Part shown: positions 22,707 to 30,682 of the stretch, one piece after another
Position numbering within the stretch: position 1 is the stretch's first letter
Layout of the letters: the number at the start of each line of letters is the position of its first letter
Source of the DNA: Escherichia coli
Lineage (GTDB): Bacteria > Pseudomonadota > Gammaproteobacteria > Enterobacterales > Enterobacteriaceae
Direction: 5' to 3' (one strand)
Assembly: GCF_044647545.1 (NCBI RefSeq)
Contig: NZ_CP172818.1
DNA length: 64,000 bases
Translations under genes and position numbers: made by a program
Notes under the pieces: model-generated
Told to the model about the DNA's origin: nothing
Seen by the model: the letters and a program-made list of their open reading frames with translations, nothing else
Databases searched by the model: none

Positions 22707-22775
22707 TGGTCTGATTTCGCACAGCAATAAAGATATATGGGCCGAATAAAATTCCCCGGCCCTTGTTTTTATCTC

Positions 22776-23759
22776 TTACAGTAAATCTTCAATCTCACGG
22801 ATTTTTTGACTGACATCCCTGGTACCGGATGACTGAGCTTTACGATACAGATCGAGAGCCTGTCGGAGATCGACAGGTCTTCCTTCTCCGTAATGATACA
22901 TAATGGCAAGGTTATACCAGGCAGTGGCATTATCGCATTCAGCGGCTTTCGTAAACCATTCAAAGGCGGCCTGATAATCTTTCTCAACGCCTTGTCCATG
23001 TTTATACATATAACCGATGTTGACGTAAGCGCCGACGCTTTCCTGAGCGGCAGCCTTCAGATACCAGTACATCGCTTGCTTATAGTCCTGGTCCACCCCT
23101 TCGCCAGCGTTATAATCCCATGCAATTTGAAACTGGGCATGCCGATTACCCTGCTGTGCGCTTTTCAAATACCAGAATGCGGCGAGTGTCTTATTTTGAG
23201 CAACGCCTTCTCCGTCTTTATAGAGATCGGCCAGGTTGTCTTGCGCGTAACTATGGCCTTGTAATGCAGCTTGTTTGTACCAGAAAAATGCCAGCGCATA
23301 GTCTTGTGCGACTCCGTTGCCATTTCTGTACATCCACCCAAGATTATTTTGCGCATAAGACATTCCGCTCTCCGCGGCTATCTGATACCAGGCAACCGCT
23401 TCTTTATAGTTGGGGTCTTCTCCACGATCCTGTATCCAGCCAAGGGCGTTGGAAGCGAAAGTATGGCCTTGTAGGGCAGCTTTTTTCAGCCAAAAGATGG
23501 CTTGCCCATTATCTTTATGACGGCTTTTATCCTCGGTATACTTTTGCCCTAAGGAATATTGTGCTTCACAATGACCTTGCTCAGCGGCAAGCTTCAGCCA
23601 GTAAAAGGCCTTTTCGTCGTCCGGAGAGTCAATTGCGCTATCGCGATTATAATAAAACCCAATAATATATTGAGCCTCGCAATCGCCTTTTTCAGCACGT
23701 TCGATAATCTCATCTATTGATAAATTATCGCAGCAACTTGACGTAAAAATCATTATCAT
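22776..23759 (-). CDS. ybeQ: Sel1-repeat (TPR-like) protein YbeQ, about 325 aa
   Basis: About eight tandem ~36-aa repeats with the Sel1 signature (AxxWYxKAAxQGxxxAQxxLGxxY); no obvious signal peptide; exact start (23759 vs 23753) uncertain. Confidence 0.85.
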   Translation of the reverse strand: MIMIFTSSCCDNLSIDEIIERAEKGDCEAQYIIGFYYNRDSAIDSPDDEKAFYWLKLAAEQGHCEAQYSLGQKYTEDKSRHKDNGQAIFWLKKAALQGHTFASNALGWIQDRGEDPNYKEAVAWYQIAAESGMSYAQNNLGWMYRNGNGVAQDYALAFFWYKQAALQGHSYAQDNLADLYKDGEGVAQNKTLAAFWYLKSAQQGNRHAQFQIAWDYNAGEGVDQDYKQAMYWYLKAAAQESVGAYVNIGYMYKHGQGVEKDYQAAFEWFTKAAECDNATAWYNLAIMYHYGEGRPVDLRQALDLYRKAQSSGTRDVSQKIREIEDLL

Positions 23760-23916
23760 TTCCTTATGGTTGCATATAAAGCATATTATATTTTTATGTG
23801 TTCCATTTTTGCGTAAGCCTTATTTTATGCGTATTATGTTGCGTCAGAAAAGTATAAATAAATGAGCCTCGCAACGTGGTTAATATTCATTGAATGAATA
23901 TTTAAGGATAAATTAT

Positions 23917-24624
23917 ATGGACATGGAGTCGCAAAAAATATTGTTTGCACTTTCCACTCCGATGGAAATACGCAATGAATGCTGTTTACCTTCGCATTCA
24001 TCCCCCAAAATGTATTTAGGTACACGCTTTTTTGACCTTTCTTCCTCCTGGGGAATTGATGACCGTGATGACCTGCTGCGCACAATTCACCGAATGATCG
24101 ATAACGGTCATGCCGCTCGGTTGGCAGGGCTTTATCACCGCTGGTTTCGTTATTCTCCGTGTGAATGGCGTGACTATCTTGCTGAACTAAATGAGCAAGG
24201 TCAGGCTTATGCGCAATTTGTCGCCAGCACCGCCGAATGCTGTGGCGAAGGGGGAATCAAAGCCTGGGATTATGTCCGGATGGGTTTTTTAAGCCGAATG
24301 GGCGTACTTAATAACTGGTTGAGTGAAGAAGAAAGCCTGTGGATCCAGTCGCGCATTCATCTACGGGCTCTACGTTATTATAGTAACTGGCAGCAATACT
24401 TTGCCGGTTATACCTTTGGTCGGCAATATTGGCAGTCTCCCGAGGATGATGATCTGCCTTTATTACGTGAATTCTTAGCGCGTAAAGAATACGACGATTC
24501 CGGCAATGATATGTTTTATCAATTATTTGCCAGTGACGATGCATATTACGCGACCTTACCCTGGCAACCACTGGCTGACTACCCCACATGCCCGGAAACG
24601 CTTAAGGATATGAGCGACCTATGA
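23917..24624 (+). CDS. ybeR: YbeR, 235 aa, DUF1266-like protein (family name from memory); paralogue of YbeU
   Basis: Start chosen at internal ATG so length matches the YbeU paralogue; shares [20 protein letters not shown] and ATLPWQPL...LKD(M/V)SDL with YbeU. Confidence 0.8.
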
Positions 24625-26048
24625 AAAATTGCTGGAAGATTCTCGAAATAGAGGAAACGACTGACGTCGATATTATCCGCCGCGCTTATCTGGCGCTGTT
24701 ACCGTCCTTTCATCCAGAAACCGATCCGCAGGGTTTTAAACAACTTCGTCAGGCGTATGAGGACGCGCTACGGATTGCGCAGTCGCCTGCTAAATCTGTT
24801 TGGCAACCAGAAGAACATGAAGTTGCAGAACATGAAATTCTGCTCGCCTTTCGTGCGTTACTCGCCTCTGATAGCGAACGTTTTCTGCCCTCTGCCTGGC
24901 AGCGATTCATTCAGCAATTAAATTATTGCTCGATGGAAGATATTGATGAATTACGCTGGTCGCTGTGCACAATAGCCATGAACACTGCCCATTTATCCTT
25001 CGAGTGCGTGGTGTTATTAGCAGAAAGATTGCGGTGGTTGCAGGAGGAAAACGTCGGGGAAATAGACGAAGAAGAACTGGAATCCTTTTTATATGCCATT
25101 GCGAAGGGGAATGTTTTTAACTTCCAGACCATTCTGCATCTGCCCGTTGCCGTACAAAATGACACCATTGATTTTTACCAAATGTTCGCTCGGATTTGGT
25201 CATCGCATCCAGAATGGCTGACATTGTATTTAGCGCAACATCGCGCAGTGATTATCCCCGATGATGCAAATTTGCACAGAAATTTACTCCGCTGGTATAG
25301 CACAAGCCGTCTGGATATCCCCGAACTTCTGGATTACGCCCGGTCGTGGCGGGAAGCTGAACCTGATAATGAAGATGCGCGTTATTATGAATACGCGCAA
25401 CGCGTCTATTGTGGAGAAGGCGAAAGCCTGCTGGCAGAACTTTGTGACTACTGGCGCGAGTATCCCTCCACCCAGGCGGATGCTTTAATGTTGCAATGGT
25501 GCCGTCAGCATCGGGTCGATTATTACCCGTTAGTGGTGATGATGATTGAAGCGCGTGATCTGGTTAACGATCAGGGAAAACCGCTACTTTATGTCCCTGG
25601 TGACAGCGCTCGTACGCGTTTTCATTTATACGAAATACTCAGTGATGAAAAACTCTCTGCGCTGGGGCGTTCTCTGGTCGAGATGGTTTTGCACAAAGGA
25701 CGTAAGCCGCGGATCTCACTCACGCGTGATACAGAACATACCTTATGGTCATTATATCTAGTTGCCAAACAATTAGTGCAGGCCAGCCAACCGACAGAAG
25801 AATCATTAATGCCGATTGTGAGCCGCCTTGATGCAGAAGATCGTTGTCCTCTGGAAGCATTAATTATTCGACGGTTATTAATTCAGGCGGCGAATTTTAC
25901 CGAGAAGCAAACCGTCGAACCGGAGCCGCAACCGCAGTCGATGCCCGTTGACGATGGTGGGCCGGGCTGTCTGGGCGTCATCAAAATTATTTTCTACATT
26001 TTTATCTTTGCCGGTTTAATAGGGAAAATACTCCATCTGTTCGGGTGA
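24621..26048 (+). CDS. djlB: J-domain co-chaperone DjlB (YbeS), 475 aa, with C-terminal hydrophobic anchor
   Basis: N-terminal J-like domain ([33 protein letters not shown]), C-terminal hydrophobic segment ([21 protein letters not shown]); start overlaps ybeR stop as ATGA. Confidence 0.85.
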
Positions 26049-26057
26049 CAGTCGACG

Positions 26058-26612
26058 TTAATGTGCGGGAAGCCCGGCAAGTAATCTTTCCGCGTTTTTG
26101 TAATGTTGTTTGGCGGCCAGTTTTAACCATTTTTGAGATTCATAATGGTTAACATTAATACCTGAGCCATTTCTGTAGATCAAACCCAAAGTATATTGAG
26201 CATGAGCATACCCTTGTTCAGCTGCTTCCTTATACCAGAGAATTGCTTTACGGGTATCGGGTTTGACCCCCAGACCTTTGAGGTAGATCCACCCCAGTTT
26301 ACTTTGCGCGCGTGGATTTTCCTGTTCCGCTGATTGCTCATACCAGTATCTCGCCTGTGTATAATCCAGTGGTTTACCGTCGCTACCATGAAGATAAAAT
26401 TCTCCAAGGCGATATTGCGACGTTGAGTGACCATGAATCGCGGAAAGCTCCGTGGCTGCCGTGGTGAATGGAAGACTGCCCGGTGAGCTTAAATAATCAA
26501 AGGCATAATTCGCCATGGCTTTATCACGCAACGTCGTTTTCTTGGGTTGGCTAATACAGGTTATTGCTGCAACTATAAATATTGCGAATGTATACATTAA
26601 TTTTTTATTCAT
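26058..26612 (-). CDS. ybeT: Sel1-repeat protein YbeT, 184 aa, with N-terminal signal-peptide-like segment
   Basis: Hydrophobic N-terminus ([21 protein letters not shown]) followed by about three Sel1 repeats. Confidence 0.85.
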
Positions 26613-26713
26613 GTGTGAATGCTTCGATTTTCTTTTTATTTTGAAAGCGTCAAGTTTATACTCATCAATAATAAAAAAGTAGTCAGTTAATGCACTTAAG
26701 GGATTATTAACAA

Positions 26714-27421
26714 ATGAATAAGGAAGAACAATATCTTCTTTTTGCGCTTTCTACGCCCATGGAAATACTTAATCAGGGTTGCAAGCCCGCGCATGACTCG
26801 CCAAAAATGTATACCGGGATAAAAGAATTCGATCTCTCATCATCCTGGGGAATAAATAATCGTGATGATTTAATTCAGACTATTTATCAGATGACCGATG
26901 ATGGTCATGCCAATGATTTAGCTGGCTTATATCTGACATGGCATCGCTCTTCCCCTGAAGAGTGGAAAGCATTAAATGCTGGTGGCTCGGAGAGAGGGTT
27001 GATTTATACCCAATTCGTTGCCCAAACCGCTATGTGTTGTGGGGAAGGGGGAATCAAAGCCTGGGATTATGTGCGGATGGGTTTTTTATCACGGGTTGGT
27101 GTGCTCAACAAGTGGCTGACGGAAGACGAGAGTTTATGGCTGCAATCGCGCGTCTATATACGAGCACACCATTACTATCACAGCTGGATGCACTATTTTT
27201 CCGCCTATTCGTTAGGGCGTCTCTACTGGCAATCTTCTCAGTGCGAAGACAACGCTTCGCTACGCGAGGCGCTAACCCTGTACAAATACGATAGCGCCGG
27301 GAGTCGGATGTTCGAAGAGCTGGCAGCGGGAAGCGACCGTTTCTATGCCACGCTTCCCTGGCAGCCATTAACTGTCCAGCCTGAATGCCCGGTAACGCTT
27401 AAGGATGTGAGCGACCTATGA
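26714..27421 (+). CDS. ybeU: YbeU, 235 aa, DUF1266-like protein; paralogue of YbeR
   Basis: Collinear similarity to YbeR over the full length. Confidence 0.85.
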
Positions 27422-28869
27422 AAACATGTTGGCAAATCCTCGAAATTGAAAGCACGACGCAAATAGACATTATCCGCCAGGCTTATCTTGTTCGCTTACC
27501 GTTGTGTCATCCCGAAACCGATCCGCAGGGGTTTAAAGCATTACGCCAGGCCTATGAAGAGGCGCTGCGACTGGCGGTAAATCCTGTCGAGGAGGCAGAT
27601 GATGAAGAAAAAGATGCCGCCGCTGAACATGAAATACTACGTGCATTCAGGGCATTACTGGATTCTGAAAGTGATCGTTTTCAGCCCTCCGCCTGGCAGA
27701 AATTTATTCAGCAATTAAATACCTGGAACATGGAGGATGTCGATCAATTACGCTGGCCGCTGTGTGCAGTCGCTATAGAAGCGCGATATCTTTCATTAAA
27801 TTGTGCTTCTTTGCTGGCAGAGCGTTTGAACTGGCATTCGTTTAATGACAGCGAAGGAATGGATGAGGAAGAAAGGGAGGCTTTTCTTGAGGCCATTCAG
27901 GCTGGTGATTGTTTCGATTTCCTTAGCCTTCTGGAATATCCCGTCGCGTTGCAGAACCAGACTGTTGAGTATTACTTCGCGCTGGAACGCTGCTGCCGTT
28001 ACCATCCTGACTATGTCACTGCGTTTATGGCAATGGAAGGTCCGTGGTTCATTCCTGATGATGTCAAGTTACATCGCAAACTGTTGCGCTGGTACAGCTC
28101 GGTGAAAACAGGTATGGCGGAACTTATTCCTGTTGCCCAACAGTGGCAAGCAGAAAATCCAGAAAGCGAAGATGCCCGTTATTACCAGTGTGCGCAACGG
28201 TTGTACTGTGGCGAGGGGGAAAGCCTGCTTGCCGATCTCTGCGCATACCGGGAGAGTTACCCATCTACACAAGCTGATAATTTGTTGTTGCAGTGGAGCA
28301 AGCGTCATTGCCCGGATTATTTCGCGTTATTAGTGATGGTTATCGAAGCGCGAAGCATGATAGATGCGCAAGGTCAACCGTTGAAATATGTTCCTGGTGA
28401 GAGCGCCCGGACGCGGCTGTTATGGGCGGAAATTTTACATAGCGGAAAATTATCGCCGTTAGGTCAATCGTTTATTGAGTCGTTATTCTTCAAGCGCAAA
28501 GCATGGGCATGGTGGAAATCGAGAGTCGGTAGCGAGACAGAACAAGATTCACCGTTACTGGATTTGTATCGGGTAGCGGAACAGGTTGTGCTGGAAGCGT
28601 TCCCGAAACAAGAGATGCTGGCCCGTCTTAATACAAGGCTGGAAGGTGGAGATGCTCATCCATTAGAGGCCATTATCACGCGGATGCTGTTGACGAAAGT
28701 GAAACTCGAGCCGGAGGATGAAGATGTCGATGAGCCAACACCTGAAAACCACGAAGAAAAAAATGATGAGGATGAAAAACCACAGAGCATTACCAGCATT
28801 ATCAAAATCAGCTTAACGGTGCTGGTGATAGGTTATGCTCTCGGAAAAATCGCGATGTTGTTTAGCTGA
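27418..28869 (+). CDS. djlC: J-domain co-chaperone DjlC (YbeV), 483 aa, with acidic tail and C-terminal hydrophobic anchor
   Basis: J-like domain ([13 protein letters not shown]), acidic stretch ([24 protein letters not shown]), terminal hydrophobic helix; start overlaps ybeU stop as ATGA. Confidence 0.85.
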
Positions 28870-28928
28870 GGATGTGTTTTTTGCGCCGATGCCGGATGCA
28901 GCGTTTATGCCGCATCCGGCAGCCGTGT
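28870..28928. repeat. REP (repetitive extragenic palindrome) element between convergent djlC and hscC
   Basis: gccgatgccggatgcagcgtttatgccgcatccggcagcc palindrome typical of E. coli REP units. Confidence 0.6.
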
Positions 28929-30599
28929 TTAAGGGATCTCAATAGCCAAATAATCGCTCGCCCGTCGCCGAACTTCATCGACGCGGGCCATATCGTTTGA
29001 CTGCAACGCCGCATCAAAATCGGTGATCACCCGGCCGATCTCTTCTCGCTCGTCACCCAGCGCCCGCGCCCACAACTCTTCCAGTTTGGCCTTAAAGGTG
29101 CGGTTGATGAGCATATCGCGCGGATAAATTTTCAATGCGGATAACCGCGTCCGACTCTCTTCAATCTGCTGTGCGCTCAATGTTACAGGACTGTGATTAA
29201 TGACTCTGGACTTAACGCTGCCGTCTTCCAGAAGCACGTCAACTTCAAGCAACCCGTTGATATCATAACTAAAGCGAATATCAATCGACTGATAAGCCCC
29301 GGTTTTCTTCAACGGCACATCGAAGGATTCCACCAGAATGTTATTTTTAACTTTGTGGTTTTCTCCCTGATAGACGTTAACCGTAATTGAATCCTGTTCC
29401 CGGTGCATGGTCGAGTAAGTTTCTACACGCGACACCGGTACAGTGGTGTTTCGTTCAATAATCGGCGAGAAAATGCCGGAAACGCCCTGGCGGTTAACTT
29501 CAACACCCAACGAGTAAGGGCAAATATCAGTGAGGATCACCTCTTCAATATCTTCACTGCGTAAGCGGCAGGCGGCCTGGATTGCTGCGCCCAGCGCGAC
29601 AATGGTGCTCGGATCGTAACTTTGATACGGTAATTTGCCAAACAGACGCACGGCGATTCGCTGCACCAGCGGCATTTGTGATGCGCCGCCAACCAGCACC
29701 AGACTGTCGATTTGACTTGGCTTCAGACGTGCATCGCGCAACGCCTGTTCAATCGGTACTCGCAAGCGATTGAGCAGCGGCAACCACAAATCTTCCAGTT
29801 CGTTCTCGTAAAATTCGCACTCACGCGTTTCTTCCTGACACTGCCAGCTAATTTGCAGCGGTAATTGATTGCTGCATTTTGCCGCTTCCACGCTGGTGTA
29901 CAGGGCTGCCAGCTCACTTTCGTTGAGCATGTTTTTAGCCACTGCGGCGCGTTTTAAAACTTCATCCACCAGCATATGAGTAAAATCTTCGCCGCCAAGA
30001 AAGTTGTCGCCAGCGGAGGCGTGAACTTCAATCACCGGCGTGGCGTATTCGAGCACCGTGACGTCAAACGTGCCGCCACCGAGATCAAAAACCAGCGAGC
30101 GGGTATTTTGTTGCGTATGCAGGCCATATGCCATCGCAGCTGCTGTGGGTTCATTAATTAAGCGTACCGCATTTAACCCGGCTAACTCCGCTGCTAAACG
30201 GGTATGCTTGCGTTGTTCATCGCTGAAATAAGCCGGAACGGAGATCACCACATCTTTAATCGGACGTTGCAGAAATTCTTCGGCATCTTCTTTTAATGAG
30301 CGTAATACCAAAGAGGACAGTTCTGGCGCGTTAAATGTGTCGCTGCCTAACCGCCAGTTGGTATTACTGCCCATTGCACGTTTAAATAACGCTGCCGTTT
30401 TATCCGGATGCGAAGTACGCCGTGATACAGCCGGTTTTCCGACTAAAATATGATTATTTTCATCCATGCTAATTATGGATGGTGTTAAATATTCACCGAA
30501 CTTATTTGGAATTAATTGCGCGGCACCGTCTTTCCAGACGGCAATTAAACTATTGGTAGTACCGAGATCGATACCAATGGCGAGTTCTGCATTATCCAT
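28929..30599 (-). CDS. hscC: Hsp70-family chaperone HscC (Hsc62), 556 aa
   Basis: Hsp70 ATPase signatures (IGIDLGTTNS, DLGGGTFD, VLVGGASQMP) and substrate-binding domain. Confidence 0.9.
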   Translation of the reverse strand: MDNAELAIGIDLGTTNSLIAVWKDGAAQLIPNKFGEYLTPSIISMDENNHILVGKPAVSRRTSHPDKTAALFKRAMGSNTNWRLGSDTFNAPELSSLVLRSLKEDAEEFLQRPIKDVVISVPAYFSDEQRKHTRLAAELAGLNAVRLINEPTAAAMAYGLHTQQNTRSLVFDLGGGTFDVTVLEYATPVIEVHASAGDNFLGGEDFTHMLVDEVLKRAAVAKNMLNESELAALYTSVEAAKCSNQLPLQISWQCQEETRECEFYENELEDLWLPLLNRLRVPIEQALRDARLKPSQIDSLVLVGGASQMPLVQRIAVRLFGKLPYQSYDPSTIVALGAAIQAACRLRSEDIEEVILTDICPYSLGVEVNRQGVSGIFSPIIERNTTVPVSRVETYSTMHREQDSITVNVYQGENHKVKNNILVESFDVPLKKTGAYQSIDIRFSYDINGLLEVDVLLEDGSVKSRVINHSPVTLSAQQIEESRTRLSALKIYPRDMLINRTFKAKLEELWARALGDEREEIGRVITDFDAALQSNDMARVDEVRRRASDYLAIEIP

Positions 30600-30682
30600 T
30601 GCATTTATATCTTGAAAGAAAAAGAGATAAACAGATTAAGACCACCCAGGTAACGCGTGGTGATCTTAATCAATGACGTGTG

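Follow-up and report, generated by a model that had tools for sequence, protein, structure and literature searches.

ybeQ and ybeT are known, uncharacterised Sel1-repeat genes that lie beside the HscC chaperone genes of Escherichia coli; both they and their neighbours are already annotated, in more than 5,400 E. coli genomes. The reading preferred here, with a probability of roughly 0.55, is that they are accessory Sel1 genes of the HscC island whose products, a cytoplasmic YbeQ and a membrane-anchored YbeT, serve as optional adaptors. The two proteins differ at their N-termini, and the conserved chaperone core is found across many Gammaproteobacteria with no Sel1 gene beside it.

The window is a stretch of 64,000 nucleotides from contig NZ_CP172818.1, 100% identical to E. 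coli strain FDAARGOS_497, in which the ybeQ-hscC accessory island sits between ybeL and rihA. ybeQ is divergent from the ybeR-djlB pair, ybeT is divergent from ybeU-djlC, and hscC adjoins. The features are as follows.

22739..22762, minus strand: terminator-like hairpin followed by a T-rich tail (8-pair stem with 6 GC pairs), a candidate from a consensus scan only
22776..23753, minus strand: ybeQ, 325 aa, 8 Sel1 repeats (ORF, RefSeq, Pfam)
23754..23916, no strand: divergent promoter region between ybeQ and ybeR, 27.6% GC (computed)
23917..24624, plus strand: ybeR, DUF1266 protein; stop overlaps the djlB start by 4 nt
24621..26048, plus strand: djlB, J-domain protein with a C-terminal tail anchor (approximately residues 449-475)
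26058..26612, minus strand: ybeT, 184 aa, 3 Sel1 repeats (ORF, RefSeq, Pfam)
26550..26600, minus strand: ybeT codons 5-21, conserved N-terminal hydrophobic segment, probable signal-anchor, preceded by MNKK
26613..26713, no strand: divergent promoter region between ybeT and ybeU, 27.7% GC (computed)
26714..27421, plus strand: ybeU, DUF1266 protein, 61% identical to YbeR; stop overlaps the djlC start by 4 nt
27418..28869, plus strand: djlC, tail-anchored J-domain co-chaperone of HscC, 49% identical to DjlB
28929..30599, minus strand: hscC, specialised Hsp70

The ORF list places both genes where an earlier note on this DNA had put them and, together with RefSeq, confirms its statement that they run opposite in strand to ybeR-djlB and ybeU-djlC. 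The stop codons of djlB and ybeT are 9 nt apart, and ybeT has the lowest GC content of the island (43.4%; GC3 38.9%). The hairpin lies directly downstream of the ybeQ stop, within the convergent ybeL/ybeQ spacer; apart from this plausible terminator, promoter- and terminator-like sites in the consensus scan are no commoner than in shuffled sequence. An Rfam search gave no match, and the PADLOC anti-phage defence models gave no meaningful match to the seven island proteins. A gene called ybeQ in a Rickettsia toxin paper proved to be an unrelated annotation label.

YbeQ is the simpler case. The ORF taken from its first ATG spans 22776-23759 on the minus strand and encodes 327 aa; RefSeq starts at the second ATG (23753), two codons further on, which has an AAGGA Shine-Dalgarno sequence 8 nt upstream. 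Eight Sel1 repeats are recognised by Pfam PF08238 (E = 6e-62, 204.3 bits), and the protein is acidic (D+E 44 vs K+R 31). Its most hydrophobic 19-residue window reaches a Kyte-Doolittle mean of only 1.09, and a hydrophobic N-terminus is also missing from five YbeQ orthologues. Because no start codon lies between the preceding in-frame stop and the start of the ORF, a hidden signal peptide is excluded. The description of YbeQ as a protein of about 325 aa with about eight repeats and no export signal is thereby upheld, and this eight-repeat solenoid is predicted to be soluble and, by default, cytoplasmic.

The wider distribution of the genes separates them from the chaperone module. Of 78 loci fetched, approximately 70 are non-Escherichia gammaproteobacterial loci with a DjlB/C relative (Pseudomonas, Gilliamella, Pectobacterium, Yersinia and others). 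In all of these the J-protein gene has a DUF1266 gene as its neighbour, with HscC encoded next wherever the sequence reaches that far, while no Sel1 protein was found within 8 kb in any of them (phmmer E < 1e-5). In Enterobacteriaceae, the presence of one Sel1 gene does not depend on that of the other: locus L004 has ybeQ without ybeT, L002 and L092 have ybeT without ybeQ, and Klebsiella spallanzanii has neither. The idea that L002 holds the cassette in a new genomic context was rejected, since L092 and blastn lead back to the same ybeL-linked locus. The full island is present in 3654 of 5426 complete E. coli genomes; a single-cassette form keeps ybeT-ybeU-djlC-hscC, and the whole island is missing from approximately 20% of genomes, where ybeL lies directly next to rihA. 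Co-occurrence with the HscC/DjlB-C/DUF1266 module does not place the Sel1 proteins among its core components. The Sel1 genes are accessory; the conserved core consists of the DUF1266 protein, the J-protein and HscC.

What does tie the Sel1 genes to the module is regulation. Both have opposite-strand genes on both flanks, so each forms its own transcription unit; by geometry, this gives a positive answer to the question raised in the earlier note of whether they are independently transcribed. Each shares a divergent promoter region of approximately 28% GC with the neighbouring DUF1266/J-protein operon. The ybeQ/ybeR spacer is reported to bind H-NS and RpoD holoenzyme (PMC3946193), the ybeT and ybeU-djlC transcripts both appear in an H-NS regulon listing, and SlyA overexpression raises ybeT 4.1-fold and ybeU-djlC 2.8-fold (PMC5797941). 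An hns mutation raises a DUF1266 gene 308-fold (PMC7582179). The Sel1 genes and the chaperone module are linked, then, by shared AT-rich, H-NS-silenced promoter regions and by the SlyA induction of ybeT and ybeU-djlC. Adjacency and co-regulation inside an H-NS-silenced island could also be mere hitch-hiking.

YbeT is a basic protein (K+R 22 vs D+E 14) with three Sel1 repeats (PF08238, E = 1e-30, 105.4 bits); like YbeQ, it is above the Pfam gathering threshold of 30.7 bits. An older K-12 annotation names it a 'conserved outer membrane protein'. After MNKK comes a hydrophobic segment of 17 residues (residues 5-21), at the short end of transmembrane-helix lengths, with a Kyte-Doolittle mean of 2.23 and a Hessa-scale sum of -1.24 kcal/mol. 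The segment is kept in eight orthologues (Escherichia clades, L003, L002 and L092; 71-98% identity), always at 17 residues, with means of 2.2-2.8 and Hessa sums of -1.2 to -3.5 kcal/mol. Over codons 1-22 dN/dS is 0.16-0.31 on five to six synonymous differences, and the swaps are hydrophobic-for-hydrophobic; the low ratio indicates that the segment is translated and under purifying selection. The signal- or anchor-like hydrophobic start ascribed to this protein of 184 aa and about three repeats is thus real and conserved.

The same data bear on a start at Met33, which would take the segment out of the protein and leave a soluble cytoplasmic Sel1 protein of 152 aa. One gene caller chooses Met33 for P0015 and P0011, some database entries do likewise, and the Shine-Dalgarno sequence before Met1 is weak. 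There is, however, no Shine-Dalgarno sequence at Met33 either, and the ORF from Met1 is intact in 8/8 orthologues, including the P0015 locus; with the substitution pattern of codons 1-22, this makes the shorter protein very improbable. The 168-aa 'truncated' YbeT entries lie at contig ends and were rejected as cases of anchor loss.

Whether the segment is a cleavable signal or an anchor depends on its distal end and on what follows. YbeT has a Sec-like n-region (MNKK, or MKRK in L002 and L092) and an uncharged hydrophobic core of 12-17 residues; YbeQ has neither. No AxA cleavage site occurs in the eight orthologues. Where the hydrophobic segment ends, the -3/-1 rule is obeyed only by C-I-S|Q, allowed in Escherichia and L003 and lost in L002 and L092, which have Phe at -1; the sites common to 8/8 orthologues are I-T-C|I/F, at the distal segment end, and I-V-A|, after residue 15 and deep in the core. 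A Sec-type cleavable signal is expected to be followed by a neutral or acidic mature start, as in six exported proteins of the same window with a net charge of 0 or below at the corresponding stretch, but the 10-15 residues after the YbeT segment carry a net charge of +1 to +3 in 8/8 orthologues. With no conserved AxA site, no lipobox and this positive charge, the segment is most likely an uncleaved or poorly cleaved inner-membrane anchor rather than a classical signal that releases a periplasmic protein. An alternative parse gives a 21-residue signal peptide, with MNKK as n-region, an h-region of 12 residues, ITCIS as c-region and cleavage at C-I-S|Q; on this parse, cleavage would be possible in E. 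coli itself.

A lipoprotein would be a further way to reach the envelope, with signal peptidase II cutting before Cys19 and the product sorted to the outer membrane. Cys19 is invariant in 8/8 orthologues amid variable neighbours, the n- and h-region before it are of the length usual in lipoprotein signals, and the old 'outer membrane protein' label would fit. The lipobox [LVI][ASTVI][GAS]C is nevertheless absent: the sequence reads A-I-T-C (F-I-T-C in L003), so that Thr occupies -1 and Ala or Phe -3, in a window where three lipoproteins have canonical boxes (ITAG|C, LAA|C and LVA|C). RefSeq does not name YbeT a lipoprotein, and lipoprotein sorting is improbable.

Which way the Sel1 domain faces is harder to read from the flanks of the segment. 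Two to three K/R precede the segment and three to four follow it, and the bias differs among orthologues: E. coli and four other orthologues have four after the segment vs two before, and in L002 and L092 the N-flank, at +3, is charged at least as strongly as the C-flank. Judged by residue counts, the flanking charges are balanced, or would even favour a cytoplasmic C-terminus. Our estimate for the Sel1 domain is approximately 55% periplasmic, 35% cytoplasmic and 10% not membrane-inserted. Outside the orthologues, the closest Sel1 relatives of YbeT comprise signal-less proteins, one protein with a clear signal peptide and zinc-ribbon-plus-transmembrane forms; being so mixed, they were dropped as a guide to the ancestral compartment. 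Neither ybeT nor ybeQ was found in the supplements of a membrane-proteomics study or of a proteome-wide topology analysis, and djlB, djlC and hscC were likewise not found in those of the former; HscC-system proteins are reported to be below detection (PMC8215388). The suggestion that the two Sel1 proteins differ in likely compartment survives in part: YbeQ is very probably soluble in the cytoplasm and YbeT very probably membrane-targeted, given that one lacks an export signal and the other has a conserved, translated hydrophobic segment, but the flank charges of YbeT give no side for it to face.

There is close to an even chance that YbeT is exported, with the segment acting as an N-in/C-out signal, whether or not it is cleaved, and a periplasmic Sel1 domain, as for most studied bacterial Sel1 proteins; YbeT would then have a function coupled to that of HscC loosely or not at all. 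A KK or KRK n-region ahead of a hydrophobic core is the normal Sec layout, the charges of L002 and L092 agree with that orientation, and a chaperone core conserved without Sel1 genes fits a loose coupling. The most similar named NCBIfam Sel1 families, all far below the family cut-offs, are MerG, AlgK, MotX and ExoR, which are exported proteins. ybeT is listed among OmrA-affected genes, and many of the OmrA targets listed are envelope genes (PMC3318445); the label 'outer membrane protein' in the old annotation points the same way. Against export, the net +1 to +3 right after the segment is unusual for Sec substrates and no standard cleavage site is conserved, while co-regulation with ybeU-djlC and a ybeT-ybeU-djlC-hscC synteny conserved at 71% identity argue for some functional link.

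In a less probable alternative, YbeT would be a type III (N-out/C-in) protein, with its basic Sel1 domain on the cytoplasmic face beside tail-anchored DjlC and HscC, where it could work as a membrane-bound TPR-like co-chaperone or client adaptor. The charge excess after the segment in E. coli and the four orthologues favours this tentative possibility, as does the fact that the remaining island products are all cytoplasmic or cytoplasm-facing; DjlC is strongly acidic in the linker that leads into its anchor and YbeT is basic, and ybeT is co-induced with ybeU-djlC. Translocation of an N-terminus with two or three lysines or arginines across the membrane (N-tail translocation) is disfavoured, however, and YbeT has just such an N-terminus; the charge bias is gone or reversed in L002 and L092. 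A model of YbeT fused to YbeU also lacks a confident interface: the AlphaFold2 linker fusion YbeT(22-184)-YbeU has a pTM of 0.56, a negative that from this fusion approach is uninformative, and YbeU alone reaches 0.90.

The proposal that Sel1 scaffolds facing different compartments beside the J-proteins make up a membrane-spanning chaperone/adaptor assembly finds no support in these results. [quoted passage not shown] The charges do not settle the side of YbeT, approximately 70 loci carry the module without Sel1, and ybeQ and ybeT vary independently. Most likely, YbeQ and YbeT are core parts neither of the chaperone machine nor of a membrane-spanning assembly.

In the preferred reading, the H-NS-silenced ybeQ-hscC island encodes a specialised Hsp70 system made up of HscC and the tail-anchored DjlB and DjlC, each of the two J-proteins translationally coupled to a DUF1266 protein. 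Both Sel1 genes would be additions made within Enterobacteriaceae, one at each DUF1266/J-protein promoter, a location from which each would be switched on together with that pair. YbeT, a three-repeat solenoid, would be held at the inner membrane by its N-terminal segment, and the two proteins would most likely be optional protein-binding adaptors for the two J-protein branches. It is unlikely, but conceivable, that the arrangement is more specific, with YbeT as an N-out/C-in, cytoplasm-facing adaptor and YbeQ as its soluble counterpart, each docking on its own J-protein/DUF1266 pair, possibly at the acidic membrane-adjacent DjlC segment or the HscC tail, and selecting HscC clients at the inner membrane. 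If true, such paired adaptors would give bacteria an equivalent of the TPR co-chaperones that partner membrane J-proteins in eukaryotes.

Both genes, with their Sel1 repeats and the genes around them, were annotated before, and older annotations give YbeT a membrane-related label, so the observations matter little as such; about one E. coli genome in five dispenses with the island. Their value is for the poorly understood HscC system, in which a core of DUF1266 protein, J-protein and HscC can now be separated from enterobacterial Sel1 add-ons, and the topology of YbeT bears on whether contact between a Sel1 adaptor and the cytoplasmic chaperone is possible in the first place.

Among known systems, membrane-associated TPR partners of Hsp70/J-protein machines are familiar from eukaryotes (Sec72 with Sec63, Tom70, Hop/CHIP), as is Sel1L/Hrd3 in ERAD. 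The island resembles them in placing a helical-repeat scaffold beside an Hsp70 and a membrane-anchored J-protein, a likeness by analogy only, with no homology of YbeQ or YbeT beyond the repeat class. Closer by repeat family are the exported Sel1 proteins, namely Helicobacter pylori HcpC (1OUV), E. coli EsiB (4BWR), AlgK, MotX, ExoR and MerG, which carry canonical signal peptides or lipoboxes. Among PDB entries, YbeT is matched best by EsiB and other Sel1 structures, yet the likeness to this group is at repeat level only, with NCBIfam scores far below the cut-offs; YbeT has no canonical signal peptide or lipobox, and YbeQ no signal of any kind. YbeQ (b0644) and YbeT (b0647) of E. coli K-12 are the same genes at the same locus, with approximately 96-99% nucleotide identity and matching RefSeq names; the differences are strain-level substitutions only, such as T8 here for the I8 of the commonest YbeT allele. 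The Sel1 genes lie inside the cluster of the HscC-DjlB/DjlC system (Kluck 2002; Peschke 2018), sharing its promoter regions and its H-NS/SlyA control. The review of that system makes no mention of Sel1, TPR or ybeQ (PMC8215388). As published, the system includes neither Sel1 nor DUF1266 proteins; here, the DUF1266 proteins belong to the conserved core and the Sel1 proteins lie outside it.

The block between ybeL and rihA carries two Sel1-repeat genes, ybeQ and ybeT, each beside a pair of DUF1266 and J-protein genes. The RefSeq gene order is leuS (-), ybeL (+), ybeQ (-), ybeR (+), djlB (+), ybeT (-), ybeU (+), djlC (+), hscC (-), rihA (-), and the part of the window around ybeQ and ybeT is E. 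coli chromosome with 100% identity to strain FDAARGOS_497. Positions come from a six-frame list of ORFs, which gives the same genes as RefSeq, and domains from Pfam:

22776-23759, minus strand, ybeQ, ORF with 8 Sel1 repeats
23917-24624, plus strand, ybeR, ORF with DUF1266
24621-26048, plus strand, djlB, ORF with a weak DnaJ domain
26058-26612, minus strand, ybeT, ORF with 3 Sel1 repeats
26714-27421, plus strand, ybeU, ORF with DUF1266
27418-28869, plus strand, djlC, ORF with a weak DnaJ domain
28929-30599, minus strand, hscC, ORF with HSP70

YbeR and YbeU share 61% identity, DjlB and DjlC 49%, and each pair has one Sel1 gene directed away from it; the layout looks like the product of a tandem duplication of the DUF1266/J-protein pair. 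Between YbeQ and YbeT the resemblance is confined to the repeat level (~35% whatever the register). In the J-domains of DjlB (24621-24770) and DjlC (27418-27567) HPE replaces the canonical HPD, with H31, P32 and E33 invariant among 16 aligned family members, ~900-aa relatives included. The convergent stops of djlB and ybeT are 9 nt apart (26049-26057), a spacing that is the same in orthologues; a consensus scan found no terminator-like site in this gap, and in the E. coli deletion variant L087 the final 126 nt of djlB still adjoin ybeT.

The earlier note, which rightly describes two genes already known, held that YbeQ has no export signal and that YbeT starts with a hydrophobic, signal-like stretch. 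Both observations stand. The most hydrophobic 19-residue window of YbeQ averages 1.09, nothing like the YbeT segment; a hidden upstream signal is discounted because the ORF begins at the first start codon past a stop. An AAGGA box lies 8 nt 5′ of the annotated ATG, and all five orthologues examined are missing an N-terminal hydrophobic stretch. That YbeQ is cytoplasmic is a safe prediction.

YbeT residues 5-21 form a hydrophobic run free of charged residues (Kyte-Doolittle mean 2.23; Hessa-scale sum -1.24 kcal/mol). Eight orthologues were compared: two alleles from E. coli, one each from three further Escherichia lineages (L007-L009), one from a metagenomic relative (L003, 83% identity) and two from contigs of one enterobacterium (L002 and L092, ~71%). 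The Met1 reading frame and the hydrophobic 17-mer are kept in all eight, substitutions in the segment swap one hydrophobic residue for another, and codons 1-22 show 5-6 synonymous differences from the window sequence, with dN/dS of 0.16-0.31. By these comparisons the segment is a real, selected portion of the protein. Database entries that start YbeT at Met33 or residue 17 were traced to gene-caller choices or contig ends.

The type of signal was judged by textbook rules, with six exported proteins encoded in the window (three signal peptides, three lipoproteins) as controls. For E. coli itself, an n(4)-h(12)-c(5) signal peptide cleaved after Ser21 is possible. The site C-I-S↓Q, which follows residue 21, fits the -3/-1 rule in Escherichia, and L002 and L092 have Phe at -1. 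Two sites fit this rule in all eight sequences, I-T-C↓I/F and I-V-A↓, the latter following residue 15 and so well inside the hydrophobic core; an AxA site is absent. Cys19 is invariant, and the surrounding A/F-I-T-C, with Thr at -1, departs from the lipobox [LVI][ASTVI][GAS]C; LptE and the two other window lipoproteins have canonical lipoboxes. In each of the eight orthologues, the 10-15 residues past the segment have a net charge between +1 and +3, against 0 or below in the six controls. K/R residues number 2-3 before and 3-4 after the segment, with a bias that varies among orthologues, leaving its predicted orientation ambiguous under the positive-inside rule. Taken together, the cleavage-site, lipobox, post-segment charge and positive-inside results favour reading the segment as an uncleaved anchor over a signal peptide of the classical, cleaved kind. 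The safe prediction is that YbeT is membrane-targeted via this conserved N-terminal segment, which is probably uncleaved. We give a periplasmic Sel1 domain a probability of about 0.55, with a cytoplasmic position as the less likely alternative. An older K-12 annotation reads "conserved outer membrane protein" (quoted in PMC5797941), and supplementary data from a membrane-proteome and a topology study gave no experimental localisation of YbeT or YbeQ. The stretch of YbeT directly after the segment is basic, whereas the DjlC linker before its membrane anchor (28770-28869, residues ~430-460) is extremely acidic; they would complement each other only with both on the cytoplasmic face.

Whether ybeQ and ybeT are independently transcribed can be answered in outline: each forms its own transcription unit, because the flanking genes lie on the other strand. 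Each Sel1 gene shares with its DUF1266/J-protein operon a short divergent spacer of ~28% GC, within an island of 43-49% GC flanked by 52-53%. The ybeQ/ybeR spacer carries RpoD holoenzyme and H-NS sites by Genomic SELEX (PMC3946193). With SlyA overexpressed, ybeT rises 4.1-fold and ybeU-djlC 2.8-fold, and the listed H-NS regulon includes both (PMC5797941); in strain 042, an hns mutation derepresses one DUF1266 gene 308-fold (PMC7582179). The order ybeT-ybeU-djlC-hscC is kept at 71% protein identity. Spacer sharing, co-regulation and synteny are evidence of a link between Sel1 gene and chaperone module. In a TraDIS challenge with the BtuB/SdaC-dependent phage Arnold, ybeT was among the top enriched genes, and a clean Keio ybeT deletion behaved as wild type (bioRxiv 10.1101/2025.12.01.691526); a published list of OmrA-affected genes includes ybeT, btuB and sdaC (PMC3318445).

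Across Enterobacteriaceae, ybeQ and ybeT vary independently by gene content: L004, whose leuS is 87% identical to that of the window, has ybeQ and lacks ybeT, L002 and L092 have ybeT-ybeU-djlC-hscC and lack ybeQ and ybeR, and Klebsiella spallanzanii has neither Sel1 gene. Within E. coli the whole ybeQ-hscC block (22707-30682) is accessory. Among 5426 complete genomes, the full island is present in 3654 (about two thirds), 80% or more of ybeT is retained in 4256 and as much of ybeQ in 3852, and in roughly one fifth ybeL adjoins rihA with the entire island gone. A recurrent form has ybeQ-ybeR-djlB eroded and ybeT-ybeU-djlC-hscC kept, and single strains show IS-mediated island deletions (IS1, ISEc33). 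Between ybeL and ybeQ, Escherichia sp. MOD1-EC7003 has additional DjlB/DjlC-like fragments (93 and 344 aa; L007 944-2299), perhaps left over from a third cassette. In L092 (5761-8081) a divergent 447-aa DjlB-like gene without a DUF1266 partner adjoins ybeL; next come a gene for a 319-aa protein that has a clear signal peptide, alaE, a RibD_C gene and then ybeT-ybeU-djlC-hscC.

The membrane-spanning chaperone assembly proposed earlier finds no support in DjlB/DjlC anatomy or in comparative genomics. The two chains terminate at their tail anchors (…GKILHLFG and …GKIAMLFS), so essentially nothing is exposed to the periplasm. A fusion model of YbeT(22-184), linker and YbeU (pTM 0.56) gave no confident placement of the two proteins relative to each other and bears neither way on interaction; YbeT residues 22-60 had low to moderate confidence, with the Sel1 solenoid from ~residue 63. 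Searched against 1.84 billion protein representatives, DjlC has a narrow family (113 at E ≤ 1e-10), most relatives being ~900 aa long, several with a C-terminal DUF805 membrane domain. Outside Enterobacteriaceae (P0076-P0113; L011-L083), ~900 aa is the length of most relatives, and this multi-pass domain replaces the single tail anchor in several. Scanning 100,044 species genomes gave 78 loci, in Escherichia, K. spallanzanii, Pragia, Limnobaculum, Pectobacterium, Brenneria, Rahnella, Yersinia nurmii, Budvicia, Gilliamella and ~45 Pseudomonas, and phmmer with YbeQ and YbeT queries (E < 1e-5) found no Sel1 ORF within 8 kb of any non-Escherichia locus. Given this result and their patchy presence, the Sel1 proteins are lineage-specific accessories outside the conserved machine: at most optional, co-regulated adaptors of two J-protein branches.

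What is conserved across Gammaproteobacteria is a three-gene core of DUF1266, DjlB/C-like J-protein and convergent HscC (window 23917-30599; L006, L010-L084). A DUF1266 gene stands directly upstream of the J-protein gene in 78/78 loci, its stop usually overlapping the J-protein start, and a convergent HscC gene follows wherever the stretch is long enough (L072 and L084 end short). In the known system DjlC stimulates the ATPase of HscC, hscC mutants and djlB djlC mutants are Cd2+ sensitive, and HscC, DjlB and DjlC fall under the proteomic detection limit (PMC8215388). That review mentions neither Sel1 nor DUF1266 proteins; from the conserved core, DUF1266 appears to be a part of the HscC system that has gone unrecognised.
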